The position numbers and the translations under genes were made by a program. Under the pieces are notes generated by a model. That model saw only the letters and a list, made by a program, of their open reading frames with translations, did no database searches and was not told the DNA's origin. A stretch of 24,000 bases of DNA from Citrobacter sp. ANG330 (lineage in GTDB: Bacteria > Pseudomonadota > Gammaproteobacteria > Enterobacterales > Enterobacteriaceae), in NCBI RefSeq assembly GCF_047467925.1, contig NZ_JASJUI010000011.1, positions 96,281-120,280 of the forward strand, written 5' to 3'. Positions 2,068 through 23,020 of the stretch are shown here, piece by piece. Each line of letters begins with the position of its first letter. The stretch's first letter is position 1.

Positions 2068-2501
2068 AGCAGCGCGACCACCTCTTCCCGGGAATTTGCC
2101 GCCCGCAGCTTCGCCATGCGTTCATCGTTATCCAGTAACGCGACAATAGCGCGTATGCCCTCTTCGATATGCGCATTACTGTCCTGTGCGCCAAACATAA
2201 TGACAATGTCGGCGGCTTCACTGTCAGCAAACTGAATCGGCGTATTGAGTAATACCATGCTAAAACAGTTACGCTTCACACCACACTCAGGCCGCGCATG
2301 GGGGATCGCAACGCCCTCATCAAACACATAATACGCTCCGTGACTGAGGGTATTATCGATCACCGCCTGTCCGTATTCCGCTGAAATATACCCTTTTGCG
2401 ACCAATGGACGGGCCGCCAGTTGAATCACCTTCTGCCAGTCAGTTTCCGCTACGCCAACCTGAATCGCATCGGCCTCGATAAGTAATTCTTTTATCGTCA
2501 T
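2064..2501 (-). CDS. PTS EIIA component (EIIA-2 fold, mannitol/fructose/ascorbate type)
   Basis: 145 aa. The motif GVAIPHARPE carries the phosphorylatable His typical of EIIA-2 proteins. The size matches SgcA/UlaC-type EIIA. Confidence 0.8.
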   Translation of the reverse strand: MTIKELLIEADAIQVGVAETDWQKVIQLAARPLVAKGYISAEYGQAVIDNTLSHGAYYVFDEGVAIPHARPECGVKRNCFSMVLLNTPIQFADSEAADIVIMFGAQDSNAHIEEGIRAIVALLDNDERMAKLRAANSREEVVALL

Positions 2502-2533
2502 GAAGACTCCCTAAGAGCTTAACGAATCCGGCT

Positions 2534-2803
2534 CTAAATATTTCGGCGAATAACATTACGTAGCTCATCTATACGCACAAAAAGCGTATCAATTTCCTGT
2601 CGGTGCGTTTGGCTTTTGGCATAAACTGACAACGCCCGATTATAGATAAGCATTAATGACTTCTGTATTTCGCCATTACCCGGATTGCCCTGCAGTTCAC
2701 CTTCCAGCCTGGCGATTTCTCCCGCCAGAACACGAGATTGTTCATCATAATCTTCCGGCGGGCGTGTTTCTTTTTTCCATAGCGACTTCAAAGATTCAAA
2801 CAT
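2534..2803 (-). CDS. Small hypothetical helical protein (89 aa) inside the PTS operon
   Basis: The track ORF is 2534..2851. I prefer the ATG at 2803 (MFESLKSLWKK...), which is preceded by GGGGGAT 4 nt upstream. I recognise no family motif. The sequence looks all-helical and charged. Confidence 0.45.
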   Translation of the reverse strand: MFESLKSLWKKETRPPEDYDEQSRVLAGEIARLEGELQGNPGNGEIQKSLMLIYNRALSVYAKSQTHRQEIDTLFVRIDELRNVIRRNI

Positions 2804-2862
2804 AGCGATCCCCCGCCCTGATGGACAACAGGGCAACAAAATATCATTCATTAATAACGGAG

Positions 2863-3705
2863 TTATTTAAATAACGCGATCTTTTCCATTAATACCTGGG
2901 TGACGGCATTATTTGCCGGAATTAAAAACTTACGTACGCTGTCATTCACTTTGCCTTTCTCAAAGGTATTTTTACACTGGTCGACCCACTGTACGTTCAT
3001 TTCCGTGCCGACATTCACTTTATTAATGCCTTCAGTGACGGCCAGGCGCATATCGTCGTCACTCACCCCTGTCCCCCCGTGTAATACCAGCGGAACACCG
3101 GTCGCGGCGCTGATCTCTTTCAGCCGCTGATGTTGAATTTGTGCCTTGCCGGTATACAGGCCGTGTACCGTACCCACCGACACCGCCAGCATGTCGACTC
3201 GTGTTTCATCAACGAAGCGTCTGGCATCTTCCACCGTCGTAAAGCAGATATCTTCTGCCGCCACCGCTTTACCATCCTCTGAGCCGCCGATGGCCCCGAG
3301 CTCGCCTTCTACCGTAATATTTCGCGGTCGCGCCATCTCCACTACGATGCGGGTATTACCGATATTTTCATCCAGCTCAAGATGCGAGCCGTCATACATG
3401 ACCGAAGAGAACCCGGCATTCATCGCCGTCTCAATGGCGCTGATATCAGAGCAGTGATCCAGATGCAGGCAGGTCGGGACATTCTCGCTCTCCGCCAGCG
3501 AACGCACCGCATCCACCAACAGGCGATAGCCCAGATATTCAGCCGTCCCGGTCGAGATCTGAATCATTAACGGGCTGTTCGTTTTTTGCGCCGCTTTAAA
3601 AAACGCGGGCAGCATTTCAATACAGTGCAGATTAAAGGATCCAATCGCTTTGAAATTTCTTTCCTGGCCGATTTTTAGGATCTCGTTGAAGTTATAAAGA
3701 CTCAT
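2863..3705 (-). CDS. Class II (metal-dependent) ketose-bisphosphate aldolase, GatY/KbaY/FbaA-like
   Basis: The track ORF 2863..3945 is over-extended. The homologous part starts at MSLYNFNEILKIGQERNFKAIGSFNLHCIEM... (ATG 3705, or 3711), giving about 280 aa as in tagatose/fructose-bisphosphate aldolases. Metal-ligand motifs HLDH and LVLHGGTG are present. Confidence 0.8.
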   Translation of the reverse strand: MSLYNFNEILKIGQERNFKAIGSFNLHCIEMLPAFFKAAQKTNSPLMIQISTGTAEYLGYRLLVDAVRSLAESENVPTCLHLDHCSDISAIETAMNAGFSSVMYDGSHLELDENIGNTRIVVEMARPRNITVEGELGAIGGSEDGKAVAAEDICFTTVEDARRFVDETRVDMLAVSVGTVHGLYTGKAQIQHQRLKEISAATGVPLVLHGGTGVSDDDMRLAVTEGINKVNVGTEMNVQWVDQCKNTFEKGKVNDSVRKFLIPANNAVTQVLMEKIALFK

Positions 3706-5059
3706 GAACATTTTCCCCTTTTGGCTTAGCGGATTTACCGTTGACGAACCACGCCAGTGCGGCAACAAAAACAATGAACAAGGCAACAAACAGCCAGTTA
3801 TTCTGGAAGGCGTGGCCCAGGACGAGGCCAGAGCTGATAACGTCTGAATCGCTGAACGTGACGCCGGTAAAACCGTAAGTTTCCAGCATCGGCACCAGAA
3901 TCGCTGGCAGGAAGGTGATGAACAAACCGTGAACCACACCCCCAATCATCGCGCCGCGACGACCGCCCAGCGCATTGCCAAAGACGCCCGCCGTCCCCCC
4001 GGCGAAGAAGTTGGTTAGCAGACCCGGTAGAATCATCGCCAGACCAAACATCGGGAAGACCAGCATGCCGATGATGGAACCGACGGTTGTCGCCAGGAAT
4101 CCGACAATCACTGCGTTGGGTGCATAAGGGAACAGAACCGGACAATCCAGCGCAGGCTTAGCGTCCGGGACGATACGCATGGCGATACCGCGAAACGCCG
4201 GAACCAGTTCGTTGAGCAATAAGCGTACGCCGCTGTAGAGCACGAAGACGCCAGCTACAAACTGAATGGACTGCATGAAGGCAAACATCAGGTAGTTAAC
4301 ACCGCCGGAAAACTGAGCGATATATTCCGGACCCGCCGCCAGCGCCGGAATGAGGTACATCGGCACCATCACGACCGCCATGGCGAGATAAGTATCCTGT
4401 AAGAACTTGAAGTTATCAGGTAACTCAAGATCTTCCGTGGAGCGAGACCCTTTGCCTACCACTTTAGCCACTGCGGCCTGGACCAGATAACCAATGGTGC
4501 AGAAATGTCCCAGCGCCACATCATCCGAGCCGGTAATGCGTCTGACCACCGGTTGCGCCAGCGCAGGCATCAATACCGCCATCACGCCGCCAAAAATCCC
4601 ACCGGTTAAAATCAGCGGCAGTCCGGTGAGGCCTGATTTATAGCCAATAACCGCGCCAATGGTCGCCATCCACAATAACGCCTGTCCGGTCAGGAAGATG
4701 TATTTCAGCGGTGTCAGGCGCGCAATAATGATATTGACGGCAAAAATCACCATGAGCGTTAACGCCACTTCCGAACCCAGTTCACGGTTCGCTAACCCGG
4801 CAATGGCGGCCACATCGGTAATATAGCCCTTCATGCCAAATCCCTGAGTAAAAATATCGTTCAGGAAGGTCAGCGTGGCGACAATAATATTAATGCCAGC
4901 CATCATGATTAAAAAACCAAGCAGCGTTTTAAACGTGCCTTCTGCGGTTTTCCCCGGCGATTTCTTTTGCAGGATCAGACCGAGCATCGCGATAAAAGCA
5001 ATTAATATCGATGCCTGCCCGAGCAAATCTTTAACGATGAATTCAACGATACTATTCAT
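3692..5059 (-). CDS. PTS EIIC permease, L-ascorbate (SgaT/UlaA, EIIC-GAT) family
   Basis: 455-aa polytopic membrane protein. Size and glycine-rich hydrophobic segments match UlaA/SgaT-type EIIC. It overlaps the EIIB stop and the aldolase start. Confidence 0.75.
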   Translation of the reverse strand: MNSIVEFIVKDLLGQASILIAFIAMLGLILQKKSPGKTAEGTFKTLLGFLIMMAGINIIVATLTFLNDIFTQGFGMKGYITDVAAIAGLANRELGSEVALTLMVIFAVNIIIARLTPLKYIFLTGQALLWMATIGAVIGYKSGLTGLPLILTGGIFGGVMAVLMPALAQPVVRRITGSDDVALGHFCTIGYLVQAAVAKVVGKGSRSTEDLELPDNFKFLQDTYLAMAVVMVPMYLIPALAAGPEYIAQFSGGVNYLMFAFMQSIQFVAGVFVLYSGVRLLLNELVPAFRGIAMRIVPDAKPALDCPVLFPYAPNAVIVGFLATTVGSIIGMLVFPMFGLAMILPGLLTNFFAGGTAGVFGNALGGRRGAMIGGVVHGLFITFLPAILVPMLETYGFTGVTFSDSDVISSGLVLGHAFQNNWLFVALFIVFVAALAWFVNGKSAKPKGENVHESL

Positions 5060-5366
5060 AATCGGCTACCTTCAGATTCCGCTCTTTTAAAAACGCGACG
5101 ATCTTAGCTTCAATTTCGTCTTTGTCCGTGAGCTTATTCAGTACCACAACCCGTTTAATTTCTTCTTCACTGGCATCCGCCGTTAAGATGTCAGCAAAGG
5201 TTTTTTGCGTCAGGATCATGTCAGATTTAAACGCGCCTGCTTCGGATACTGTGGTATGTTCGATATGCGCAGGAATTTCCAGTTTCTTTAAAACCGCTTT
5301 CGCCGTCATTTCAATAGCAAAACTTGAACCGAGGCCGCAGCCACATACGCAAAGAATTTTCAGCAT
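5052..5366 (-). CDS. PTS EIIB component (ascorbate/galactitol-type, Cys-phosphorylated)
   Basis: MLKILCVCGCGLGSS... has the N-terminal active-site Cys loop of UlaB/SgcB-like EIIB. I prefer ATG 5366, with GAGGAG 7 nt upstream, over the track start at 5381. Confidence 0.75.
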   Translation of the reverse strand: MLKILCVCGCGLGSSFAIEMTAKAVLKKLEIPAHIEHTTVSEAGAFKSDMILTQKTFADILTADASEEEIKRVVVLNKLTDKDEIEAKIVAFLKERNLKVADYE

Positions 5367-5377
5367 GTAAGGTCTCC

Positions 5378-6358
5378 TCAAATAATATTGAGTTGTTTGG
5401 CAAGTTTGTAATGATGTCCTTCTGTATCGACCAGACGTTTTTTCATACTTACGAGATCAATCGGAATAGGTTTATTGCTTTGATTAATAATAATTGCTTT
5501 ATTTTTCATCCCTGACTGAATGCACCGAACCACTTCGCTCGCCATAATGGTGCCCTGATAAATTTCTTCACAGGTCGGATCGCCATTACGTAAACCGTAA
5601 CCGACAATGGTTTTCCGAATTCGCTCGCCGATACGCGGTTCGAGTTGTTTAATCATGGTATCAATCGCCCCCTGAAAACCGGGGGAATATTCTCTGGTGT
5701 AGCCTTCTGAGCACAGAATTATCACGCTGTTCTGGGTGGCCAGTTTTTGCTTTACCCGTTCTGCTAAAGCTTCAAGCGACATCTGGGACTCTGGAATCAG
5801 GGCGATATCCGCATTGCATTTAATCGCAGATTGCAGGGTTAATTCGCCACAATAGCCACCCAATAACTCCACCATAAACACGCGACCGGGTAGGGCTCTG
5901 CCCGTATTTCGTAAACGAGAAACCTCCTTAATAATCTGTTCGCAGGCAGTCGAAAAACCAATCGTATAATGACTACCGTAAACATCATTATCGATGGTCA
6001 TGCCCACACCAAAACAATTAATATCAAATTCGCTCAGGGTATTGAGAAACTGTAAACTGCCGTCGCCGCCAGCCATAATCAGTACATCAATGTGCAGCGA
6101 CTTGAGTTTTCTGGCGATCGTTTCATATTCGCTACGCTGCAATTTACGGGTTGTTCTTCCCGAGGTAATAATGGGTATCGCTGCAATGGAAAAATCGACC
6201 AAATCACGCCACGCCACGTCATGGTGATTTTTCTCCAGCAAACCGGGGATCCCACCATTGAATAAGGTAATTTTTGCATCCGCGAGTCTGGCGATCTGGA
6301 ATATAAAGTTATTAATTCCAGAAACATCGCCACCACTAATGACAATACCAATTTTCAT
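5378..6358 (-). CDS. PfkA-family (ATP-dependent 6-phosphofructokinase-like) sugar-phosphate kinase, divergent
   Basis: From ATG 6358 (GGAGGA 6 nt upstream) it reads MKIGIVISGGDVSGIN... with GGDGS, TIDND and GGYCGEL motifs aligned to PfkA. It is 326 aa against 320 aa for PfkA. The track start at 6430 adds 24 unsupported residues. Confidence 0.75.
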   Translation of the reverse strand: MKIGIVISGGDVSGINNFIFQIARLADAKITLFNGGIPGLLEKNHHDVAWRDLVDFSIAAIPIITSGRTTRKLQRSEYETIARKLKSLHIDVLIMAGGDGSLQFLNTLSEFDINCFGVGMTIDNDVYGSHYTIGFSTACEQIIKEVSRLRNTGRALPGRVFMVELLGGYCGELTLQSAIKCNADIALIPESQMSLEALAERVKQKLATQNSVIILCSEGYTREYSPGFQGAIDTMIKQLEPRIGERIRKTIVGYGLRNGDPTCEEIYQGTIMASEVVRCIQSGMKNKAIIINQSNKPIPIDLVSMKKRLVDTEGHHYKLAKQLNII

Positions 6359-6486
6359 TGCGTTTCCTCCGAAGCACCCGTGGAAACATTTTTCCCTGAC
6401 TTCAAGCCTGTTATTTGCAATGAAGATCACATTATGATGATAAATTCCGTAGCGCGGAATATTGACAGGATGATTACATGGTTGTT

Positions 6487-6508
6487 TTTTGTGACTAACA
6501 TCTCATTT
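6487..6508. promoter_or_regulatory. Candidate CRP-binding site (TGTGA-N6-TCTCA)
   Basis: TTTTGTGACTAACATCTCATTT compared with the consensus AAATGTGATCTAGATCACATTT. The left half is perfect and the right half matches 4/5. It lies in the divergent control region. Confidence 0.4.
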
Positions 6509-6634
6509 TAAGAGGGTGCATCCGCGAGGCATCCATTTTTAATTTCGTTAATTATCATTGCGTTAATTGACACAGAAATCTTTTCTTTTAAGCGGTTGTC
6601 TTCCGCTTCCTGCATCGATGTTATGAAAAGAGAG

Positions 6635-6656
6635 AAATGTGAGAAATATCGCATTT
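6635..6656. promoter_or_regulatory. Candidate CRP-binding site (TGTGA-N6-TCGCA)
   Basis: AAATGTGAGAAATATCGCATTT matches the 22-bp CRP consensus at all flanking AAA/TTT positions and at 9 of the 10 core half-site bases. Confidence 0.5.
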
Positions 6657-6841
6657 TTTTGCGACCGGGAGGTTTATTTACGCCTTATTTCGTTCTGCCT
6701 CACTTTGCAAACTGTGGGCTTGCGCACAAAGCCTGTTGATGCTTAGCCCACATTATGTCACTCCGCTCAGACATATTGCCGCTCATCACAACACGGTCTC
6801 CTCGTTAAAATCTTCATAACGCGTTTTAACGGAGTTCCTTT

Positions 6842-7288
6842 ATGTCCATGCTCACAACACGTTGCCTTGATCTGAATATTCAGGGCAACAGTCCTTATTC
6901 CATTCTTAAACAACTTGCGGAAATGGCCTTTCGCAATGGCGCCATCACCGACCGACAGGTGTTTCTACAGACGCTTTTGATGCGGGAAAAACTCCACTCC
7001 ACCGGATTTAGCTCAGGCGTCGCCGTGCCGCATGGCAAAAGCGACTGTGTAAAACATCCCTTTGTTCTGTTCGCCCGTCACGCTCAGGGCGTTGACTGGC
7101 GCGCCAGCGATGGCGAAGTCGTCAATTGTTGGATCTGCCTCGGCGTACCGCAATCCGGTGAAGACGCTCAGGTTCAAATCATCGGCACCCTGTGTCGCAA
7201 AATCATCCATCAGGATTTCATCAATCAACTGAAACAAGGCGATGCCACTCAGGTGCTGACCTTGTTAAATCAGACCCTAACCTCATAA
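6842..7288 (+). CDS. frvA: PTS fructose-like EIIA component FrvA
   Basis: 148 aa with a GVAVPHGKS His motif and GGAG 7 nt upstream. It is followed by the frvB/frvX/frvR order seen in E. coli K-12. Confidence 0.85.
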   Translation: MSMLTTRCLDLNIQGNSPYSILKQLAEMAFRNGAITDRQVFLQTLLMREKLHSTGFSSGVAVPHGKSDCVKHPFVLFARHAQGVDWRASDGEVVNCWICLGVPQSGEDAQVQIIGTLCRKIIHQDFINQLKQGDATQVLTLLNQTLTS

Positions 7289-12973: not shown

Positions 12974-15900
12974 ATGCAGGTCAGCAGAAGGCAGTTCTTT
13001 AAGATCTGCGCTGGCGGTATGGCAGGCACCACGGCGGCGGCACTGGGCTTCGCGCCCGGCGTAGCGCTAGCGGAAACACGGCAATATAAACTGCTGCGCA
13101 CCCGCGAAACCCGTAATACCTGCACTTACTGTTCCGTTGGTTGTGGGCTGTTGATGTACAGCCTCGGCGACGGTGCTAAAAACGCCAAAGCGTCTATCTT
13201 CCATATCGAAGGTGATCCGGACCATCCGGTCAACCGTGGTGCGCTCTGCCCGAAAGGGGCCGGTCTGGTGGACTTCATCCACTCCGAAAGCCGCCTGAAA
13301 TTCCCGGAATACCGCGCGCCAGGCTCGGATAAATGGCAGAAAATCAGTTGGGATGAGGCATTTGACCGCATCGCGAAACTGATGAAAGAAGACCGCGATG
13401 CCAACTACATTGCGCAAAACGCCGATGGCGTTACCGTTAACCGCTGGCTGTCTACCGGGATGCTGTGTGCTTCCGCGTCCAGTAACGAAACCGGCTTTTT
13501 AACGCAAAAATTCACCCGCGCGCTCGGTATGCTCGCGGTCGACAACCAGGCGCGTGTCTGACACGGACCAACGGTAGCAAGTCTTGCTCCAACATTTGGT
13601 CGCGGTGCGATGACCAACCACTGGGTCGACATCAAAAACGCCAACCTCGTCGTGGTGATGGGCGGCAACGCCGCTGAAGCGCACCCGGTCGGGTTCCGCT
13701 GGGCGATGGAAGCGAAAATTCACAACGGCGCGAAGCTGATTGTGATCGATCCGCGTTTCACGCGTACGGCGTCGGTGGCCGATTTCTATGCCCCAATCCG
13801 TTCGGGTACTGACATTGCCTTCCTGTCAGGCGTCATGCTGTACCTGCTGACTAACGAAAAATATAACCGCGAATACACCGAGGCCTACACCAACGCCAGT
13901 CTGATCGTGCGTGAAGATTTTGGCTTCGAGGACGGCCTGTTTACCGGCTATGACGCGGATAAACGCAAGTACGACAAGACCAGCTGGAACTATGAGCTGG
14001 ACGAAGAGGGCTTTGCCAAACGCGATACCACACTGCAACACCCGCGCTGCGTCTGGAACCTGCTGAAACAGCACGTCTCCCGCTACACGCCGGACGTGGT
14101 GGAAAACATCTGCGGTACGCCAAAAGCCGACTTCCTGAAAGTCTGTGAGTACATCGCAGAAACCAGCGCGAAAGACAAAACCGCGTCGTTCCTGTATGCC
14201 CTCGGCTGGACACAGCACTCCATCGGTTCGCAGAACATCCGCACGATGGCGATGATCCAGTTGCTGCTCGGCAACATGGGGATGGCGGGCGGTGGCGTTA
14301 ACGCCCTGCGCGGTCACTCCAACATTCAGGGGCTGACTGACCTGGGCCTGCTGTCACAAAGCCTGCCGGGCTACCTGACGCTGCCCAATGAAAAACAGCC
14401 TGACCTGCAAACATACCTGGCCGCCAACACGCCGAAACCGCTGTTGAAAGATCAGGTCAACTACTGGGGCAACTACCCGAAATTCTTCGTCTCGTTGATG
14501 AAGGCCTTCTACGGCGATAAAGCGACAGCGGAAAACAGCTGGGGCTTTGACTTCCTGCCGAAGTGGGACAAAGGGTACGACGTGCTGCAGTACTTCGAGA
14601 TGATGAAAGAGGGTAAGGTCAATGGCTATATCTGCCAGGGCTTCAACCCGGTCGCGTCATTCCCTAACAAAAACAAGACGATTGCATCTCTGTCCAAACT
14701 GAAGTTCCTGGTGACGATCGACCCGCTCAACACGGAGACCTCCACCTTCTGGCAAAATCACGGTGAGTCGAACGATGTGGATCCGTCGAAAATCCAGACT
14801 GAAGTGTTCCGTCTGCCCTCCACCTGCTTTGCCGAAGAGAACGGTTCGATCGTGAACTCCGGCCGCTGGCTGCAGTGGCACTGGAAAGGTGCGGACGCCC
14901 CGGGGATCGCGGTCACCGATGGCGAAATCCTGGCCGGTATCTTCCTGCGCCTGCGCAAAATGTATGCTGAGCAGAGCGGCGCCAACCCGGAACAGGTGCT
15001 GAGCATGACCTGGAACTACTCCACCCCACATGAACCGGCATCGGAAGAAGTGGCGATGGAGAGTAACGGGAAAGCACTGGCCGATCTCATCGACCCGGCT
15101 ACGGGCGCGGTGATCGTGAAGAAAGGCCAACAGCTCAGCTCGTTTGCTCAGTTGCGTGACGACGGCACCACCTCCAGCGGTTGCTGGATTTTCGCCGGTA
15201 GCTGGACGCCGGAAGGCAACCAGATGGCGCGTCGCGATAACGCCGATCCGTCTGGTCTGGGCAATACGCTGGGCTGGGCATGGGCGTGGCCGCTGAACCG
15301 CCGTATCCTGTACAACCGTGCTTCCGCTGACCCACAGGGCAACCCGTGGGATCCGAAGCGCCAAATCCTGAAATGGGACGGCGCAAAATGGAGCGGGATG
15401 GACATTCCGGACTACAGCGCCGCCGCACCCGGCAGCGACGTCGGGCCGTTCATCATGCAGCCGGAAGGGATGGGACGTCTGTTCGCTCTCGACAAGATGG
15501 CGGAAGGGCCGTTCCCGGAACACTACGAACCGTTTGAGACGCCGCTGGGTACCAACCCGCTGCACCCGAACGTGATCTCCAACCCTGCCGCCCGTATCTT
15601 CAAGGGCGACGCCGAAGCGTTGGGTAAAGCCGATAAGTTCCCGTACGTCGGAACCACTTACCGTCTGACCGAGCATTTCCACTACTGGACCAAGCATGCG
15701 CTGCTTAACGCTATCGCGCAGCCGGAACAGTTTGTGGAGATCGGCGAGACGCTGGCGAACAAGCTCGGCATCGCTCATGGCGACACCGTTAAAGTCTCCT
15801 CTAATCGCGGCTATATCAAAGCCAAAGCCGTGGTGACTAAGCGTATTCGCACGCTGAAAGCAGACGGCAAGGATATCGATACTATCGGTATTCCGATTCA

Positions 15901-16024
15901 CTGGGGCTATGAAGGTGTGGCGAAGAAAGGGTTTATAGCGAACACCCTGACGCCGTCGGTGGGTGATGCCAACTCACAAACGCCGGAATTTAAGTCCTTC
16001 CTGGTGAACGTGGAAAAGGTGTAA
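12974..16024 (+). CDS. fdoG: Formate dehydrogenase-O major (catalytic, Mo-bisPGD, selenocysteine) subunit FdoG; in-frame UGA at 13559-13561 decoded as Sec
   Basis: Track ORFs 12974..13561 and 13610..16024 are in the same frame and join through the TGA: ...DNQARV-U-HGPTVASLAPTFGRGAMTNHW. That gives 1016 codons plus stop, as in E. coli FdoG. The Tat signal is MQVSRRQFFKICAGG, and AAGGAG lies upstream. Confidence 0.92.
13562..13596 (+). other. SECIS-like stem-loop directing selenocysteine insertion at the fdoG UGA
   Basis: Starting 11 nt after the UGA, GGUAGCAAGUCUUGCUCC (13573-13590) can fold with a bulged U and a GUC-containing apical loop. The architecture and spacing match the E. coli fdhF SECIS GGUUGCAGGUCUGCACC. 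Confidence 0.7.
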
Positions 16025-16036
16025 CGGAGACGACTT

Positions 16037-16942
16037 ATGGCTTATCAATCGCAAGACATTATCCGTCGTTCCGCGACTAACGGTCTCACCCCCGCGCCTC
16101 AGGCGCGGGACTTCCAGGAAGAAGTGGCGAAGCTCATTGACGTCACCACCTGCATCGGCTGTAAAGCCTGTCAGGTGGCCTGTTCCGAGTGGAACGACAT
16201 CCGTGATGAAATCGGCAGCAACGTCGGGGTCTATGATAACCCGGCGGATTTAACCGCCAAATCCTGGACGGTGATGCGCTTCTCGGAAGTGGAGCAGAAC
16301 GACAAACTGGAATGGCTGATCCGCAAGGATGGCTGTATGCACTGCGCCGATCCGGGCTGCCTGAAGGCGTGTCCGGCAGAAGGGGCTATCATTCAGTATG
16401 CCAACGGGATTGTCGACTTCCAGTCTGAGCAGTGCATCGGCTGTGGCTACTGCATCGCCGGTTGCCCGTTTGACGTGCCGCGCCTGAACCCGGAAGACAA
16501 CCGGGTTTATAAATGCACGCTGTGCGTTGACCGCGTGACCGTCGGCCAGGAACCGGCCTGCGTGAAAACCTGCCCGACGGGTGCTATCCACTTTGGTTCG
16601 AAAGAGGATATGAAAACGTTGGCCGGCGAGCGCGTAGCGGAGCTGAAAACCCGTGGTTACGACAATGCGGGCCTGTACGATCCGGCAGGCGTAGGCGGGA
16701 CGCACGTGATGTACGTGCTGCATCATGCCGACAAGCCGAATCTGTATCACGGTCTGCCGGAGAACCCGGAAATCAGCGCCACCGTAAAATTCTGGAAAGG
16801 GATCTGGAAGCCTCTTGCAGCGGTCGGCTTTGCCGCGACCTTTGCGGCCAGCATCTTCCACTACGTCGGTGTCGGCCCGAACCGTGCGGATGAGGAAGAG
16901 AACAACCTGCATGAAGAGAAAGACGATGAGGTGCGCAAATGA
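16037..16942 (+). CDS. fdoH: Formate dehydrogenase-O iron-sulfur subunit FdoH
   Basis: 301 aa. It has multiple CxxCxxCxxxCP ferredoxin motifs ([39 protein letters not shown]) and a C-terminal TM helix. Confidence 0.92.
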
Positions 16943-17574
16943 AAAGACGTGACACCATCGTGCGCTACACCGCGCCGGAACGCATCAACCACTGGGTCAC
17001 CGCCTTCTGCTTCGTGCTGGCGGCGGTGAGCGGACTGGGCTTTTTCTTCCCGTCCTTCAACTGGCTGATGCAAATCATGGGGACACCGCAACTGGCGCGT
17101 ATTCTGCACCCGTTTGTAGGCGTCATCATGTTTGCCTCGTTCATCATCATGTTCTTCCGGTACTGGCACCACAACCTGATCAATCGGGATGACATCTTCT
17201 GGGCGAAGAACATCCGTAAGATTGTCGTCAACGAAGAAGTGGGCGACACCGGGCGGTATAACTTCGGTCAGAAATGCGTGTTCTGGGCGGCAATTATCTT
17301 CCTGGTGCTGCTGCTGGTGAGCGGTGTGATCATCTGGCGTCCATACTTTGCGCCAGCGTTCTCCATTCCGGTGATCCGCTTTGCGTTAATGCTGCACTCT
17401 TTTGCCGCCGTTGCGCTGATTGTGGTTATCATGGTGCATATTTACGCCGCGCTGTGGGTGAAAGGCACGATTACCGCGATGGTAGAAGGCTGGGTGACTC
17501 GCTCCTGGGCGAAGAAACATCACCCGCGCTGGTATCGTGAAGTGCGTGAAAAGCAGGATAAGACCCAGTCGTAA
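16939..17574 (+). CDS. fdoI: Formate dehydrogenase-O cytochrome b556 subunit FdoI
   Basis: 211 aa, 4-TM di-haem cytochrome b, with an ATGA overlap onto fdoH. Confidence 0.9.
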
Positions 17575-17602: not shown

Positions 17603-17634
17603 AACGCCGGAGACTGAGTTTCCGGCGTTTTTTT
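17603..17634 (+). terminator. Rho-independent terminator after fdoI
   Basis: AACGCCGGA (17603-17611) pairs with TCCGGCGTT (17621-17629) across a 9-nt loop. A T7 run follows. Confidence 0.85.
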
Positions 17635-17647
17635 AGAATGGCTTTTA

Positions 17648-17680
17648 GTTTTGACAAGTTTTTGACAACTTTATACAGAT
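17648..17680 (+). promoter_or_regulatory. Putative promoter with tandem 11-bp-spaced direct repeats (GTTTTGACAA / GTTTTTGACAA) upstream of the vWA-HK-RR operon
   Basis: TTGACA occurs at 17651-17656 and again at 17662-17667, exactly 11 bp apart. TATACA/TACAGAT -10-like sequence lies at about 17672-17680. The region sits between the fdoI terminator and the vWA gene start. Confidence 0.45.
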
Positions 17681-17745
17681 AACAGACCAACCGACGTTGC
17701 GGTCGCATAAGAATGGAGTCGATTCTTAAGACAAGGAGACGTACC

Positions 17746-19083
17746 GTGAATCTCAAACACCTCTTCGCAGCCCTGGCAATGGGACTGCTTGCGACAACAA
17801 CGGCGGCACAACCGTCCGCGCCGAAAGTGACGATCAAATCCGAACTGGCTTCCCCTCTGGTGCTGGAAAACAGCCAGGACAAAAACTACCTCAAAGTGTC
17901 ACTGACGGGTTTCCCGCTACATGCAACTAAACGCAGCCCGATCAACCTCGCACTGGTGATTGACCGCTCCGGCTCTATGGGCGGCGAGCGTATCGAACAA
18001 GCAACAGAAGCCGCCGTAATGGCGGTGAACACCTTAAGCGCCCAGGACACGCTCTCGGTGGTGATTTACGACGACGTCGTGGATGTCATCGTACCGGCGG
18101 CCAAAGTCGGCAATAAAGCGAAACTTATCAGCCAAATCCGTGAACAGCTGACCGCACGCGGCGGTACCGCACTGTTTGCCGGGGTCAGCCGCGGTATCAA
18201 AGAAACCAGTAAATTCCTTGATAAGGCCCATGTTAACCGCATCATCCTGCTGTCTGATGGCCAGGCGAACGTCGGTCCTTCCTCCACCAGCGAACTGGCG
18301 GAGCTGGGTAAGATCGCCGCCCGCAAAGGGATTGCCATCACGACGATGGGTATTGGCGAAGGCTACAATGAAGATCTGATGGCGGCGATTGCCCAGTACA
18401 GCGATGGCAACCACGTGTTTGTACAAAATACCGATGCACTGGAGAAGGCATTTGCCCATGAATTTGGCGATGTCATGTCCGTCGTCGCTCAGGATGTAGT
18501 GGTGCAAATTCATGTCGCTGACAACGTTAAGCCACTACGCCTGCTGGGGCGTGAAGGTGAAATCCGCGACAACACGGTGACCGTAAAACTGAACCAGCTT
18601 TATGCCAATCAGGAGAAATATGTCATGCTGGAAGTGCTGCCGGCGAAAGGCCAGGCCGCACAAAGCAAGCCGCTCGCTGAGATCAACGTCAGCTATAACA
18701 ACCTCGCCACCGGGCAGAAAGAGCGCTGGGATGACAAGATGGCCATCAGCTATACCGCCTCTGCCAACGAAGTTCAGAAAGCGCAGGTGGAGGATGTGAT
18801 CGTCGATTCCGCCATTCAGAAATCCGCCATTCAGAATGAGCAGGCGTTACAGCTCATCGATGAAGGCAAAATGGACGAGGCGAAAGCGATCCTGCGCGAA
18901 AACTCTAGTACACTCAGCGCGTTACCGCTTAGCGCACCCGCTGCCAGAATGAAGGCACAGGAGAGCGCAGAGGAAAACCTTAAGTTGCTGGACAGGATGG
19001 AAAGCGAAAGCAAAGAAGCATCGCGCAAGTCGCTGAAAGAACAGAGCTATAAAACCAAAAACCAGAGTTCGAAATCGAACTGA
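17746..19083 (+). CDS. Secreted von Willebrand factor type A (vWA) domain protein with complete MIDAS motif and a charged helical C-terminal tail
   Basis: I prefer GTG 17746 (AAGGAG 7 nt upstream), giving the signal peptide VNLKHLFAALAMGLLATTTAAQP. The track ATG at 17713 has no SD. MIDAS elements are VIDRSGSMGG (DxSxS), GGTALFAG (T) and LLSDGQAN (D). The C-terminal 100 aa are Lys/Glu/Ser-rich. Confidence 0.8.
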   Translation: MNLKHLFAALAMGLLATTTAAQPSAPKVTIKSELASPLVLENSQDKNYLKVSLTGFPLHATKRSPINLALVIDRSGSMGGERIEQATEAAVMAVNTLSAQDTLSVVIYDDVVDVIVPAAKVGNKAKLISQIREQLTARGGTALFAGVSRGIKETSKFLDKAHVNRIILLSDGQANVGPSSTSELAELGKIAARKGIAITTMGIGEGYNEDLMAAIAQYSDGNHVFVQNTDALEKAFAHEFGDVMSVVAQDVVVQIHVADNVKPLRLLGREGEIRDNTVTVKLNQLYANQEKYVMLEVLPAKGQAAQSKPLAEINVSYNNLATGQKERWDDKMAISYTASANEVQKAQVEDVIVDSAIQKSAIQNEQALQLIDEGKMDEAKAILRENSSTLSALPLSAPAARMKAQESAEENLKLLDRMESESKEASRKSLKEQSYKTKNQSSKSN

Positions 19084-19100
19084 TCCACAAGGAGTGCTGG

Positions 19101-20597
19101 ATGCTCAGACGCAAGCCGATTTATCTCGTCATTACACTGATGTTTTTTATCCTGCTTGCTTACCTGGGCGTTCGCACTCTGGAACATGAAGTCTTGTTGC
19201 GTCAGTACCAGACTCAGACCCTGGCGAAATCGCAAACCGCCAGCGTCGCCAGGGGGATCGAAAATATTTTGCAGCAAAAAGCCTCCCGCCTGCATGCGAT
19301 TGGCGATTTTATCGACCCCGCAGAGGTCACCACCCTCAGTGCACTGAAAGAGAATGACAGCGACATTGCCGACGTCTTTATTCTGCGGAAAAATCATCTC
19401 CTCTACCCCGATGAGCGTCAGCCGTTAAGCAACGAGGATAAAGAGTGGGTGCGCCAGCTCAGCCCGCTGGTCAACGATCCCAGCCAACTTGCCAGTCATA
19501 TGACGCAAAGCGAGCAGGACACGCCGCAGGCCGGCTGGTTTATTAGTTTTGAGACGCAGGAACCGCTGTTGATCTACTGGCGCCAGAAAGACGGGGCGAT
19601 CATCGGTTTTCGCCTCTCCTGGGTACAACTGATGATGGATATGGCGAACGGCATTCAGATTAACCCGGAGGATCCGCAGCAGATTGTCAGGGTGACAGAA
19701 AACGGCCGTCAGCTTTATCAGAACGCGCAGGCGGATCTGCGACGGCTCACCTTACTGGACTCCCGCACGCTGGAGTATCCACTCACAACGTGGCAGGTCA
19801 GCGCTTACGGCGTCAACGCACCGCTCTGGCATATCTGGCTGTGGGGCGGCGCGTTAATCGTCCTGCTGCTTCTCGCCGTCGCACTGTTGGGCGTCTCGCT
19901 GTGGCGGGAATATACCCGCGCGGCGCGTCAGGCACGCCAACAGGTCGATTTTGTCAGCCAGGTGTCACACGAACTGAAAACACCGCTGACCAACATCACG
20001 CTCTATGCCGAACTGTTGCGCGAAGGGCTGGATGATGAACAAACGCAGGAACGACGCTATGTGGATGTGATCACTCAGGAAGGCCAGCGGTTATCGCGGC
20101 TTATCCAGAATATCCTGACCTTTACACGCGCACCGAAACTGCATCTTCAGCCAGTCAATCTCCGCCGTTTGATGACAGAAATTACGCAGATCTTTACGCC
20201 TGCGTTGCAGGCAAAAGGCATGACGATTCACATGTCTTGCCCTGAGAATCTGACATTGCACAGCGATCGTGACGTGATCACACAAATTGTCAGCAATTTT
20301 CTCAGTAATGCCGAAAAATACGCTTCGCAGGGTCAGCGCGTGGATCTGATCGTGGAACACGTTGCGGAAAACGTGGAGATCGCCGTTCGCGACTACGGTC
20401 CCGGCATTGCGGAAAATGAGATGTCCTTGATCTTCCGCCCGTTTTATCGGGTCAAATCTTCCATTACCGAGGGTGTTTCAGGTACCGGTATTGGACTCAC
20501 CATCGCTTGCCAACTGGCGCAACGCCTGCACGGCAAGATTCAGGTAACGGCGCAAGAGCCTGGCGTCCGCTTTACCCTTACGCTGCCGCAGGGATGA
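19101..20597 (+). CDS. Sensor histidine kinase (2 TM, ~215-aa periplasmic domain, HisKA + HATPase_c, no HAMP)
   Basis: 498 aa with TM1 IYLVITLMFFILLAYLGV and TM2 LWGGALIVLLLLAVALLGVSLW. The H-box VSHELKTPL comes only ~22 residues after TM2. N, G1, F and G2 boxes are SNAEKY, DYGPGI, FRPFYR and GTGIGL. AAGGAG lies upstream. Confidence 0.88.
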   Translation: MLRRKPIYLVITLMFFILLAYLGVRTLEHEVLLRQYQTQTLAKSQTASVARGIENILQQKASRLHAIGDFIDPAEVTTLSALKENDSDIADVFILRKNHLLYPDERQPLSNEDKEWVRQLSPLVNDPSQLASHMTQSEQDTPQAGWFISFETQEPLLIYWRQKDGAIIGFRLSWVQLMMDMANGIQINPEDPQQIVRVTENGRQLYQNAQADLRRLTLLDSRTLEYPLTTWQVSAYGVNAPLWHIWLWGGALIVLLLLAVALLGVSLWREYTRAARQARQQVDFVSQVSHELKTPLTNITLYAELLREGLDDEQTQERRYVDVITQEGQRLSRLIQNILTFTRAPKLHLQPVNLRRLMTEITQIFTPALQAKGMTIHMSCPENLTLHSDRDVITQIVSNFLSNAEKYASQGQRVDLIVEHVAENVEIAVRDYGPGIAENEMSLIFRPFYRVKSSITEGVSGTGIGLTIACQLAQRLHGKIQVTAQEPGVRFTLTLPQG

Positions 20598-20601
20598 GAA
20601 T

Positions 20602-21288
20602 ATGAAGATACTGATTGCCGAAGATGATGCGAACATCCGCCAGGGCCTGGTGGATGCACTGTCGCGCGAGGGTTATTCGCTCATTGCCGCACCGGACGGG
20701 CGCGCGGCGCTGGAGAGTTACCACCGCGACAAACCGGATTTCGTACTGTTAGACATCATGATGCCCGAAATGGATGGCTACACGGTCTGCCGGGAAATTC
20801 GCCGCCAGAACGAACACATTCCCATTGTGTTTCTCTCCGCCAAAGATGAGGAGATCGACCGTGTCGTGGGACTCGAACTGGGTGCAGATGACTACATCAG
20901 CAAACCGTTTGGTATTCATGAACTGCGGGCGCGGATAAAAACTATCGCCCGCCGCTGCCTGAACCATAGCGCCACGCAGCCTAACCTCAGCTTTGTTTTT
21001 GGCGACCTGACGGTGTTCCCGAATGAACTGTGCGCCTGGCGTGGCGAGCAAAAGCTGGAACTGACGCTGCGGGAAGTTCGCATTTTAAGCTGCCTGGAGC
21101 GTCATCAAAATCAGGTGGTTACACGCGATATGTTGTTCGATGCGGCGTGGGGATACGACTATTTACCCAATAGCCGTACGCTGGATCAGCATATTTCCCG
21201 GCTCCGCAAAGTCATCGAACAGGATGCCAATCAGCCGCAGCTAATCCGAACGGTGCATGGTCTGGGGTATCGATATCAGGTATCGTAG
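20602..21288 (+). CDS. OmpR/PhoB-family response regulator (receiver + winged-helix DNA-binding domain)
   Basis: 228 aa: MKILIAEDD..., then FVLLDIMMPEMDG (phospho-Asp), ..SAK.., and a C-terminal ...RTVHGLGYRY wing. It starts 4 nt after the HK stop. Confidence 0.9.
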   Translation: MKILIAEDDANIRQGLVDALSREGYSLIAAPDGRAALESYHRDKPDFVLLDIMMPEMDGYTVCREIRRQNEHIPIVFLSAKDEEIDRVVGLELGADDYISKPFGIHELRARIKTIARRCLNHSATQPNLSFVFGDLTVFPNELCAWRGEQKLELTLREVRILSCLERHQNQVVTRDMLFDAAWGYDYLPNSRTLDQHISRLRKVIEQDANQPQLIRTVHGLGYRYQVS

Positions 21289-21431
21289 CGCACACATTGC
21301 GATGTCGCAGGTGTATCCCGCAGGCCGATTGCGGTTATCATTAATGACATTCACCAGAGCGGGCGCGAGATGCCCGCCAAATTACCGAGCAGATTACTCT
21401 GGCTAAATCTGCCCAACCAGGAAGTGACTGA

Positions 21432-22361
21432 ATGAGCATTCGTATCATCCCGCAAGATGAGCTGGAAAAGAGCGAGAAACGTGCGTCGGATATGATTCCC
21501 CCGTTATTATTCCCTCGGCTCAAAAACCTGTATAACCGTCGCGCCGAGCGTCTGCGCGAACTGGCTGAGAACAACCCGCTGGGAGATTACCTGCGCTTTG
21601 CTGCGCTGATCGCCCATGCCCAGGAAGTGGTGCTGTACGACCATCCATTGCAGATGGATCTGACCGCACGCATCAGAGAAGCCAACGATCAGGGCAAACC
21701 GCCGCTGGATATCCACGTTCTGCCGCGCGATAAGCACTGGCAGAAACTGCTGCACTCGCTGATCGCCGAACTGAAACCCGAGATGAGCGGCCCGGCGCTG
21801 GCGGTGATCGAGAATCTGGAAAAAGCCTCCGAGCAGGAGCTGGAACAGATGGCCAGCGCCCTGTTTGCCTCAGATTTCGCCGCGGTCAGCAGTGATAAAG
21901 CCCCGTTTATCTGGGCCGCGTTGTCGCTGTACTGGGCGCAAATGGCCAGTCTTATCCCGGGTAAAGCCCGCGCGGAATATGGCGAACAACGTCAATTCTG
22001 CCCGGTGTGCGGCTCGATGCCGGTTTCCAGCATGGTGCAAATTGGCACCACCCAGGGACTGCGCTATCTGCACTGCAACCTCTGCGAAACCGAGTGGCAC
22101 GTAGTGCGCGTGAAATGCAGCAACTGCGAGCAAAGCCGCGATCTGCACTACTGGTCGCTGGATAATGAGCAGGCGGCGATCAAAGCCGAAAGCTGCGGTG
22201 ACTGCGGGACCTACCTGAAAATTCTGTATCAGGAAAAAGATCCTAAAGTGGAAGCTGTCGCCGACGATCTCGCGTCGTTGGTGCTGGACGCGCGCATGGA
22301 GCAAGAAGGCTTCGCCCGCAGTTCCATCAACCCGTTCCTGTTTCCGGGAGAAGGGGAGTAA
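21432..22361 (+). CDS. fdhE: Formate dehydrogenase formation/maturation protein FdhE
   Basis: 309 aa, starting [18 protein letters not shown].... Four CxxC pairs are present ([29 protein letters not shown]), matching E. coli FdhE in length. Confidence 0.92.
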
Positions 22362-22379: not shown

Positions 22380-22403
22380 GCCGGACGGCGCTTATCGTCC
22401 GGC
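22380..22403. repeat. REP/BIME-like GC-rich hairpin between convergent fdhE and vapC
   Basis: GCCGGACG-gcgcttat-CGTCCGGC is a perfect 8-bp stem. The sequence resembles enterobacterial REP units (..GCCGGA..TTATC.GGCCTGC). It overlaps the last 4 codons of vapC. Confidence 0.55.
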
Positions 22404-22784
22404 CTGCAACTGATAAGGTGTGATGACGCCAGGGATCCCGGCGAAATCTCTGGTGTTGCGCGTCACAAGCGCAAACCGATGAATCTTCGCGGTAGCCAGA
22501 ATGATCGCGTCCGGAAGTTTCATCCCATATTCCTGCCTGAGATTCACGCTTCGCTCAGCAATTTCCTGTGAAACGCCGATGATGTTGAACGCACTCAACG
22601 CCACACGTGTACGATATTCCTGATGGTATTTTTTTGCCCCCACCATCACTTCCATCCAGGTAATCAGGCTGATGGCATTCTGCGGCGGATACGCTTCCAG
22701 TACTTGCTGTGCTTCCTGGTGCCCGCTGAATAAATCAATCAGGATATTGGTATCGAACAGCACGGGTCCCTTTTGCATTACCAT
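22392..22784 (-). CDS. vapC: Type II toxin VapC (PIN-domain ribonuclease)
   Basis: 130 aa. The PIN acidic residues appear in the expected contexts: [25 protein letters not shown] and TRNTRDF. The start overlaps the vapB stop (ATGGTAATG). Confidence 0.85.
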
Positions 22785-23020
22785 TCCTCGCGCAGCGTCC
22801 TCTGATACTCAACGCCGTCTTCCTCACAGCCCTGCCAGAGCCCCAGCGCATTGGAAATCGTGGTTTCGGCTTGCCTTTCAAGGTACTGTTCAACGGCTTC
22901 GCGGAGCAACTCGGCTCGTGGAAGATTGCGCTGTTGCTTGAGATCATCCAGGCGCTTGATCACCTCATCGGATAAGTCGAGTAATATTCTGCCCATGTCC
23001 ATTCCAGCCATTATGCTCAC
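22778..23020 (-). CDS. vapB: Type II antitoxin VapB (ribbon-helix-helix, CopG/Arc/MetJ-type)
   Basis: 80 aa from GTG 23020 (GGAGGT 4 nt upstream). The RHH signature is [41 protein letters not shown]. It lies immediately upstream of, and coupled to, the PIN gene. Confidence 0.8.

Follow-up and report, generated by a model that had tools for sequence, protein, structure and literature searches.

Here we describe a three-gene signalling cassette in a 24,000-nucleotide stretch of DNA from Citrobacter sp. ANG330 (contig NZ_JASJUI010000011.1, positions 96,281 to 120,280; hereafter the window, in whose numbering positions are given). The cassette lies on the forward strand between fdoI and fdhE, and encodes a putatively exported protein with a von Willebrand factor A (vWA) domain, a membrane histidine kinase and a response regulator of the OmpR/PhoB family. 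The three genes recur together across several phyla behind a putative binding site for the regulator, and on balance we consider it somewhat probable that the vWA protein is both a product of the system and a partner of its kinase.

The vWA gene occupies an open reading frame (ORF) at 17713-19083, in which the GTG at 17746 is most likely the true start: the Shine-Dalgarno sequence AAGGAG lies 7 nt upstream, and the resulting product of 445 residues has the length of the annotated homologues. The kinase gene (19101-20597, 498 residues) follows after 17 nt and the regulator gene (20602-21288, 228 residues) after another 4 nt, gaps that had already been given in the original prediction, which was made from the sequence of the window without database searches. 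The features listed in that prediction were all recovered, with one correction at the right-hand junction. These short gaps, and a Shine-Dalgarno sequence ahead of each of the three genes, indicate an operon structure. Proteins identical to the kinase and to the regulator are present in Citrobacter sp. ANG330 and Citrobacter amalonaticus, and a protein of the latter species shares 98% identity with the vWA protein.

Conservation of the triad and its promoter box

An alignment of vWA homologues was scanned against one genome per species, which yielded 80 loci; with six fetched earlier, 86 loci were available. In 66 of them, genes for a kinase and a regulator were present immediately downstream and on the same strand. 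The remaining 20 consisted of ten loci too short to tell and ten without the kinase and regulator. These ten mostly represent the most distant vWA relatives (36-46% identity), and kinase-less relatives lie in unrelated contexts (a type II secretion ATPase, SPFH/NfeD, σ70, an FAA hydrolase). Concerning the reverse direction, four full-length sensor homologues (E values of 1e-18 to 5e-5), found independently of the vWA protein, all had a vWA gene upstream and a regulator gene downstream, and a partial sensor match, P0286, was the only one standing alone. The sensors of distant phyla were beyond the reach of phmmer, and an hhalign comparison (99.8% probability, E=2.6e-30, 234 columns) indicates that they are clearly homologous at the level of profiles. 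Co-conservation of the three genes had been named as a check of the original prediction. As the co-occurrence is bidirectional and extends across phyla, the adjacency of the triad is not accidental, and the view that the three genes form one conserved functional unit is supported by these comparisons.

The proteobacterial orders with the triad are Enterobacterales, Orbales, Pseudomonadales and Burkholderiales. Its hosts include Citrobacter, Klebsiella (also Klebsiella oxytoca), Trabulsiella, Phytobacter, Serratia, Yersinia (including Y. pestis and Y. pseudotuberculosis), Morganella, Budvicia, Limnobaculum, Gilliamella, Orbus, Wohlfahrtiimonas, Entomomonas and Propionivibrio, as well as metagenome-assembled genomes (MAGs) of Myxococcota, Verrucomicrobiota, Planctomycetota, Fibrobacterota and Hydrogenedentota. 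Hosts of close relatives of the cassette come strikingly often from the insect gut, as in the case of Trabulsiella, Intestinirhabdus, Entomohabitans, Enterobacillus, Entomomonas, Gilliamella, Orbus, Zophobihabitans, Wohlfahrtiimonas and termite-gut MAGs (loci L010, L016, L018, L019, L004 and L046-L052). We regard this as a mere hint regarding the stimulus.

Clustering of 668 neighbouring ORFs over the 86 loci revealed no conserved fourth gene. Only lineage-specific synteny was found, involving a phosphoribosyltransferase, generic ABC ATPases and the fdo genes, and the contexts of the cassette are unrelated in Serratia, Yersinia, Entomomonas, Gilliamella, Morganella, betaproteobacterial MAGs and the non-proteobacterial phyla. 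This distribution suggests a cassette that is horizontally mobile and self-contained. In PLSDB, only distant homologues were found on plasmids (at most 33% identity over the full length). Membership in a defence system was also considered and rejected, as PADLOC gave only generic ATPase or receiver matches. In Serratia (loci L001-L003, L022, L023, L025, L027 and L036) the cassette adjoins a quorum-sensing pair of the LuxI/LuxR type (Autoind_synth; Autoind_bind and GerE), and a HipA-like toxin module is also near in most of these loci.

A conserved promoter element, which the original prediction missed, was found directly ahead of the vWA gene. Upstream of this gene, every enterobacterial locus carries the pattern TTTT(G/T)ACAA-N-TTTTT(G/T)ACA-(A/T)CTTTATACAGATAACAGAC, located at 17648-17687 in the window. 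Its core consists of two TT(G/T)ACA copies in direct orientation with an 11-bp period; here the repeats TTTGACAA and TTTTGACAA at 17650-17668, with TTGACA cores at 17651-17656 and 17662-17667, form the putative regulator box. It is followed by the conserved block CTTTATACAGATAACAGAC at 17669-17687, which contains the likely -10 hexamer, GATAAC (17678-17683), 10 nt past the box; transcription is predicted to start near 17690. The typical architecture in the OmpR/PhoB family has tandem repeats in direct orientation, spaced by one helical turn, that take the place of the -35 element and lie about 10 nt from a -10-like hexamer. The half-site itself resembles the TT(A/T/C)ACA repeat of Bacillus subtilis PhoP, in accordance with the kinase core and the regulator scoring nearest to the PnpS/WalK/PhoR and YycF groups, respectively. 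A scan with the σ70 consensus detected no canonical promoter before the vWA gene, as would be expected if the promoter depends on an activator.

Within 300 nt of the vWA start, a relaxed form of the box pattern was present in 56 of 67 kinase-linked loci and in 0 of 11 kinase-less vWA loci, with a background rate of 0.013 per 300 nt. The 11 kinase-linked loci that were missed show visible spacing or base variants of the box, which was also present in three extra loci reached from the kinase side. In other phyla the repeat is retained and the remaining promoter has changed (examples are CTTTTACAAACTTTTTACAAAC, ATTTTACAAACGTTTTACAAAC and TTTTACAAGTTTCTTACAAA). The block CTTTATACAGATAACAGAC is nearly invariant over Enterobacterales, Burkholderiales and Pseudomonadales, from Citrobacter to Propionivibrio and Entomomonas, a conservation that seems to exceed the needs of a -10 element; TATACA and TAACAG, about 10 nt apart, could be extra half-sites. 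Along the window the box was found once, with no second match and none near fdoG. Given these patterns, the operon is very probably autoregulated, with the phosphorylated regulator predicted to activate it; as the box stands ahead of the vWA gene, the vWA protein itself would be an output that the system induces.

In the 5' untranslated region, the alignment of upstream regions revealed an inverted repeat, AAGAAT-GGAGTCG-ATTCTT (17709-17727), with a conserved AATGG core. It is recognizable over three orders, and an RNA hairpin and a protein operator are both candidates for its role. RNAalifold gave no consensus structure for this region, and Rfam recognized only the fdoG selenocysteine insertion sequence (SECIS) element in the window. 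In Yersinia pestis (L054, 6837-6934) and also in Y. similis (L042), an 18-nt (six-codon) tandem repeat in about 4 copies sits between the promoter box and the region encoding the vWA signal peptide, and the box has moved from about -121 to -192. This repeat could be a source of length variation.

The three proteins and the role of the vWA protein

Concerning the kinase, Pfam searches identified HisKA (residues 281-344, E=3e-18), with the phospho-acceptor His290 in the motif SHELKTP, and HATPase_c (E=1e-23). No further domain follows before the end of the protein at residue 498, which makes it a classical rather than a hybrid kinase. The topology consists of a first transmembrane helix (TM1, residues 7-24), a periplasmic part of 219 residues (25-243) and a second transmembrane helix (TM2, 244-268). 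His290 lies 22 residues past TM2 and no HAMP domain was matched in Pfam, in line with the original prediction of a kinase with two transmembrane helices, a periplasmic domain of about 215 residues and no room for HAMP. In the AlphaFold model (pLDDT 82.6), an unbroken helix at residues 243-279 runs from TM2 straight into the dimerization and histidine phosphotransfer (DHp) domain. In several Y. pestis records the kinase has 451-453 residues or is partial, versus 512-518 residues in Y. pseudotuberculosis; a different start call or gene decay may account for this.

The sensor part of the kinase (residues 1-270) gave no Cache-family match in Pfam, even at E <1, and no match in NCBIfam. When its model was compared with known structures by Foldseek, the ligand-binding dCache domains 3lif, 6f9g, 7k5n, 6ior and 4xmr were matched with a probability of 1.0; E values were 1e-6 to 3e-3 across the top matches (7e-5 to 1e-3 for four of these) and TM-scores only about 0.4. 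In the model, a long stalk helix leads into a distal and a proximal PDC module (two α/β units), all bracketed by the two transmembrane helices. The sensor is thus predicted to fold as a divergent dCache, or double-PDC, domain. Amino-acid binding in dCache_1AA involves the motif Y-x4-R-x-W-Y ... Y ... D (PMC8915833); on reading residues 25-243, no Y-x4-R-x-W-Y string was present. A word-indexed search with residues 1-278 retrieved two fragments only, and an exhaustive scan of representatives and a full-length search were used instead. The exhaustive HMMER scan, over 1.84 billion cluster representatives, found just 75 relatives of the sensor, the full-length ones having the length of the kinase, and the ten longest all contained HisKA and HATPase_c with no other Pfam domain. 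The sensor family therefore appears to be restricted to one kinase family and is missing from Pfam and NCBIfam.

The regulator comprises Response_reg (E=2e-33) and Trans_reg_C (E=1e-25) in Pfam, the latter a winged-helix domain, and belongs to the OmpR/PhoB family; an OmpR-family regulator had been predicted. Its translation displays the acidic pocket E7-D8-D9 and the phospho-acceptor D51 in LLDIMMP, and it is the most conserved of the three proteins. Both signalling proteins fall below every equivalog cut-off of NCBIfam: the best match of the regulator was YycF (210 versus 340 bits), and that of the kinase was PnpS (196 versus 400), with its kinase core only. By the same comparison, orthology to PhoBR, OmpR/EnvZ, CpxAR, BaeSR, CreBC or another named enterobacterial system was not found. 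The database names of the proteins are all generic, and a search of the accessible literature, including Yersinia and UniProt Q0WCQ7, found no paper on the triad. The pair thus appears to be a genuine classical two-component system orthologous to no named one, in agreement with the original prediction, which had not recognized it as any characterized enterobacterial system. Two outcomes that had been named in advance as counting against the original prediction, orthology of the pair to a known system and a lack of co-conservation of the vWA gene, were both looked for and neither was observed.

The vWA protein matched only VWA-type models in Pfam (E=3e-17). Its metal ion-dependent adhesion site is intact; this MIDAS consists of D73-x-S75-x-S77, T141 and D171 when numbered from the GTG start, and these residues are invariant among 18 and among 61 homologues. 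The N-terminus is hydrophobic and contains neither a cysteine nor a twin arginine, and the AlphaFold pLDDT is below 50 for residues 1-22. The absence of cysteine excludes a lipoprotein, and the protein is probably soluble and exported by the Sec pathway, with a mature form of residues ~26-445. A signal peptide and a complete set of MIDAS elements (D-R-S-G-S, T and D) had both been read correctly from the sequence, and the domain searches recommended at that time gave VWA, HisKA, HATPase_c, Response_reg and Trans_reg_C, with dCache coming from Foldseek and no Cache/PDC match from Pfam. The AlphaFold model, based on an alignment of 61 sequences (pLDDT 87, pTM 0.81), begins with N-terminal β-strands ahead of the vWA domain, continues with a β-sandwich at 246-337 and has four long helices bundled together at 340-439; the chain ends in ...YKTKNQSSKSN. 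Foldseek with the whole chain found ArnB (8s05, TM 0.70-0.83), a Catenulispora vWA protein (4fx5, TM 0.72-0.75), ArnE (5a8j, TM 0.62-0.74), Sec23/24 (about 0.5) and ITIH1, pointing to an ArnB/Sec23-24-like build; periplasmic binding proteins were absent among the top matches. A profile of the family also detects the VWA domain of α2δ-1 (E about 1e-4).

We propose that the kinase senses in the periplasm by means of its dCache-like domain, and that movement of the sensor would be transmitted through TM2 directly into the DHp domain and to His290, without a HAMP domain. Following phosphotransfer to D51, the regulator would bind the tandem TTTT(G/T)ACAA repeats at the -35 position and turn on the vWA, kinase and regulator genes from their own promoter, a positive autoregulation. 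The vWA protein, the first and only non-signalling product, would act in the periplasm together with the sensor domain of the kinase. The induced protein may bind the sensor, or the stimulus, by means of its metal site, and might present the signal or feed back on the kinase in the fashion of CpxP or ZraP. The original prediction, in which the exported vWA protein serves as a metal-dependent co-sensor for the periplasmic domain of the kinase, would be compatible with this proposal. A stricter form of the proposal, in which the vWA protein is an obligate, MIDAS-dependent co-receptor docked on the dCache-like sensor, is doubtful in our view. If true, no vWA-type co-receptor of a bacterial histidine kinase would have been described before it, and it would define a widespread 'vWA-Cache' three-component family and be a two-protein prokaryotic counterpart of the VWA-in-dCache arrangement of the eukaryotic calcium-channel subunits α2δ and CACHD1.

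Several observations argue for coupling between the two proteins. The sensor family seems confined to this kinase family and stands beside a vWA gene wherever the neighbours could be checked, whereas dCache domains that bind ligands are normally found shuffled across many types of receptor (PMC8915833). The vWA fold is of a class that serves as a protein-binding module, and the MIDAS residues are invariant. The combined vWA, β-sandwich and helical build is a protein-interaction module with bacterial look-alikes, and ArnB, which has a MIDAS site, is a protein-binding partner in an archaeal phospho-signalling network (PMC12852372). In α2δ and CACHD1, the VWA domain lies as an insertion within a dCache_1 domain (PMC8915833), so these folds are able to act as one unit. 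The fastest-evolving parts of the system are the kinase sensor (mean distance 1.15) and the helical tail of the vWA protein (1.03), and in partial correlations the vWA distances follow those of the sensor (0.57) slightly more closely than those of the kinase core (0.44).

Other points weigh against the vWA protein being a partner of the kinase. Covariation of the rates is weak, and shared phylogeny confounds it. Between Citrobacter and Limnobaculum, the vWA protein is 56% identical versus 32% for the sensor, and a vWA protein so much more conserved than the sensor is not the obvious outcome of a tightly co-evolving interface. The longest sensor homologues included no natural fusion of a vWA protein with the kinase. 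The signal peptide is the sole basis for placing the vWA protein in the periplasm, and binding of the regulator to the box is suggested by the sequence pattern and the phyletic association only. Finally, dCache domains normally bind small molecules directly, so that the kinase may need no partner, and a portable cassette carrying its own effector is also plausible.

These last two points lead to a possible, though not the favoured, explanation: that the dCache-like domain senses a small molecule or ion alone, and that the vWA protein is a regulated output without a signalling role, namely a periplasmic, metal-dependent binding, sequestering or protective protein. Such an arrangement would be comparable to pmrC-pmrAB and mdtABCD-baeSR, where a single autoregulated operon begins with the gene for the output and continues with those of the two-component system. 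It would fit the regulator box directly upstream of the vWA gene, the lack of fusions and the behaviour of dCache domains, which typically bind small ligands directly (PMC8915833, and the structural matches above), and the movement of a three-gene unit between phyla without any other conserved neighbour is easiest if the unit carries its own output. On the other hand, it leaves unexplained why the sensor is seen only in this kinase family, by a vWA gene, when ligand-binding dCache domains are usually shuffled (PMC8915833), and the amino-acid motif of dCache_1AA is absent from the sensor. In addition, more distant vWA relatives persist without the kinase, and full-length sensors were not seen without a vWA gene.

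We consider unlikely a strict version of the original prediction, in which the vWA protein, in the manner of LuxP or TorT, would be a constitutive and obligate ligand-binding co-receptor that delivers a metal-dependent ligand to the kinase while the outputs of the system are encoded elsewhere in the genome. The tight bidirectional co-conservation, the intact and invariant MIDAS site, and a tandem-PDC, dCache-like sensor of the same fold class as LuxQ would all accommodate it. However, the vWA gene appears to share the inducible promoter of the system itself instead of being expressed on its own, its product does not have the fold of a periplasmic binding protein and the kinase is not a hybrid. 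In addition, the 24-kb window contains no second box, and no conserved target gene was found near the cassette in any lineage. A link of the triad to formate dehydrogenase-O, for example sensing of formate, selenium or molybdenum to control fdo and fdhE, is highly improbable. An insertion at the exact site common to six genera, and an fdhE gene downstream of the cassette with no recognizable promoter of its own, might suggest such a link. The cassette nevertheless has unrelated contexts in other lineages, it is set apart from fdoGHI by a conserved terminator, a scar of the insertion is present at the junction, and no regulator box lies near fdoG. Taking into account that the site marks an old insertion and that contexts elsewhere are unrelated, we rejected the link.

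Insertion between fdoI and fdhE

The left flank of the cassette is fdoI (16939-17574), encoding the cytochrome b556 subunit of formate dehydrogenase-O (NCBIfam NF007924, 450.7 bits versus a cut-off of 341), and the right flank is fdhE (21432-22361; NF002925, 606.8 bits versus 426), both on the forward strand. The fdhE gene begins 143 nt past the regulator gene, close to the predicted distance of about 140 bp. The two genes are now separated by 3,857 nt containing only three ORFs, whereas in E. coli they overlap by 4 nt, and the insert was without a match in 5,426 complete E. coli genomes at both megablast and blastn sensitivity. The interruption of a conserved locus, as originally proposed, is thus confirmed. 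The order fdoI-[triad]-fdhE was found in six genera, in C. amalonaticus, a Klebsiella MAG, two Trabulsiella species, Phytobacter, Intestinirhabdus and Entomohabitans, which answers the suggestion made with the original prediction that this junction be surveyed.

Behind fdoI lies an intrinsic terminator at 17603-17636, a 12-bp stem (7 G-C pairs) with a 3-nt loop and a T-run, as anticipated. A terminator-like hairpin and T-run follow fdoI in seven other fdoI-[triad]-fdhE loci of the six genera, with differing sequences, and the terminator is predicted to insulate the cassette from fdoGHI transcription. No σ70-like promoter was found in the 143-nt spacer before fdhE (21289-21431), and expression of fdhE may rely on read-through from the cassette. 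A weak hairpin is present between the regulator gene and fdhE, at 21318-21334.

Concerning the junctions, the original prediction had noted neither a compositional shift nor flanking direct repeats. The former observation stands (GC content of 0.51-0.59 in the insert versus 0.55-0.59 in the flanks), whereas the latter does not: an 18-nt fragment, GCCGATTGCGGTTATCAT, at 21324-21341, starting 35 nt past the regulator stop codon, repeats a segment internal to fdoI (17415-17432) with 16/18 identity. Its similarity score was reached by 0 of 500 shuffles. The same scar is found 3' of the regulator gene at L007 10615-10629, L010 10577-10591, L012 10620-10634 and L016 10618-10632, and is common to Citrobacter, Trabulsiella and Intestinirhabdus. 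In the junction alignment, the final ~8 codons of fdoI are unlike those of E. coli, and the sole retained piece is CTGAATGAG at the start of fdhE. The sequences point to one old insertion event, after which the cassette was inherited or spread by means of flanking homology; the shared scar and shared arrangement argue for this single old insertion and not for a functional tie to formate dehydrogenase.

Other features of the window lie outside the cassette. An in-frame stop divides fdoG between two ORFs, 12974-13561 and 13610-16024. Rfam places a SECIS element (RF01989, 84 bits) across this stop, at 13556-13614; the stop is the selenocysteine codon of the formate dehydrogenase α subunit. Downstream of fdhE, on the reverse strand, a VapBC-type pair consists of a PIN-domain toxin (22392-22784) overlapping a ribbon-helix-helix antitoxin (22778-23020), and occupies the place of yiiF and yiiE in E. 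coli, of which yiiE is annotated as a CopG-family regulator. Patches of low GC content (0.40-0.47 versus about 0.55 elsewhere) were observed upstream of the fdo operon at 2501-3000 and 5001-7000.

Comparison with known systems

Two-component systems with accessory periplasmic proteins are already known; we found no description of a vWA/MIDAS protein of the ArnB/Sec23-24 build in an accessory role. The cassette studied here occurs in pathogens (Yersinia pestis), in bee-gut Gilliamella and insect-gut taxa and in several non-proteobacterial phyla, and its kinase carries an unannotated Cache-like sensor family. The conserved regulator box provides a ready reporter and a motif for regulon prediction. 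If the contact between the vWA protein and the sensor is real, the cassette would offer a bacterial model of vWA-Cache cooperation as in the α2δ subunits, themselves targets of drugs; should the vWA protein be no more than an effector, the cassette would still be a compact, portable sense-and-respond unit.

With α2δ and CACHD1, the cassette shares a vWA and a dCache-type domain outside the cytoplasmic membrane (PMC8915833). It differs in that α2δ is a single polypeptide whereas two proteins are involved here, and in that the α2δ dCache domain has the amino-acid-binding motif, which the sensor lacks; we found no evidence of direct descent between the two. Relative to the dCache_1 family (PF02743), the sensor gives no profile match, and its model contains the stalk and the two PDC modules. 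The ArnB/ArnE proteins and the trunk of Sec23/Sec24 appear, as judged from the model, to share the combination of vWA, β-sandwich and C-terminal helical domain in one chain, at sequence identities of 18-19% between the vWA protein and the ArnB-type structural matches. ArnB of Sulfolobus is cytoplasmic and works with ArnA (FHA/zinc finger) and Ser/Thr kinases, whereas the present protein is predicted to be exported and is encoded with a His kinase and no FHA neighbour.

Some sources name the vWA protein 'Ca-activated chloride channel family protein' (KEGG-style, YfbK-type). YfbK is marked by DUF3520, an N-terminal vWF_A-associated region and lipoprotein anchoring. Its predicted structure is ArnB-like (PMC12852372). 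The best NCBIfam match of the vWA protein was TIGR03788 of the proteobacterial dedicated sortase system (79.4 bits versus a cut-off of 551.65), with residues 52-406 aligned to profile positions 246-590, and the regulator scored 147 bits versus 336 for TIGR03787 of the same system. The dedicated sortase system combines a vWA-domain protein with a dedicated kinase, an OmpR-type regulator and a sortase. The sortase, the VIT domain and the sorting signal of that system were not detected here.

The original prediction had likened the cassette to TorT-TorS and LuxP-LuxQ. As in each of these, a periplasmic protein encoded beside a membrane kinase is here proposed to act on the periplasmic domain of the kinase. 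The periplasmic domain of LuxQ is a tandem PAS/PDC fold on which LuxP docks, and the dCache-like sensor makes the likeness to LuxPQ structurally reasonable; LuxQ itself was not among the top 50 Foldseek matches of the sensor. The likeness does not extend to the proteins as a whole. LuxP and TorT are type-I periplasmic binding proteins, whereas the partner here is modelled as a vWA domain with a β-sandwich and a helical bundle; LuxQ and TorS are hybrid kinases with receiver and HPt domains, whereas the present kinase is classical; and the partner gene here stands under what appears to be the system's own regulator box.

CpxP and ZraP are accessory proteins of the periplasm that are induced and exert feedback on their kinase. 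As in CpxP-CpxAR and ZraP-ZraSR, the gene for a periplasmic protein is found here at a two-component locus, putatively under the control of the cognate regulator, and the logic would be that of a self-contained unit joining a stress sensor to its product. CpxP and ZraP themselves are small and all-helical, of the LTXXQ type, and are encoded by divergently transcribed genes, whereas the vWA protein has 445 residues and a MIDAS site and is encoded in the same operon as the kinase and regulator. By analogy, the logic of the system would be closer to that of CpxP or ZraP than to that of TorT or LuxP, or else the vWA protein would be purely an effector.

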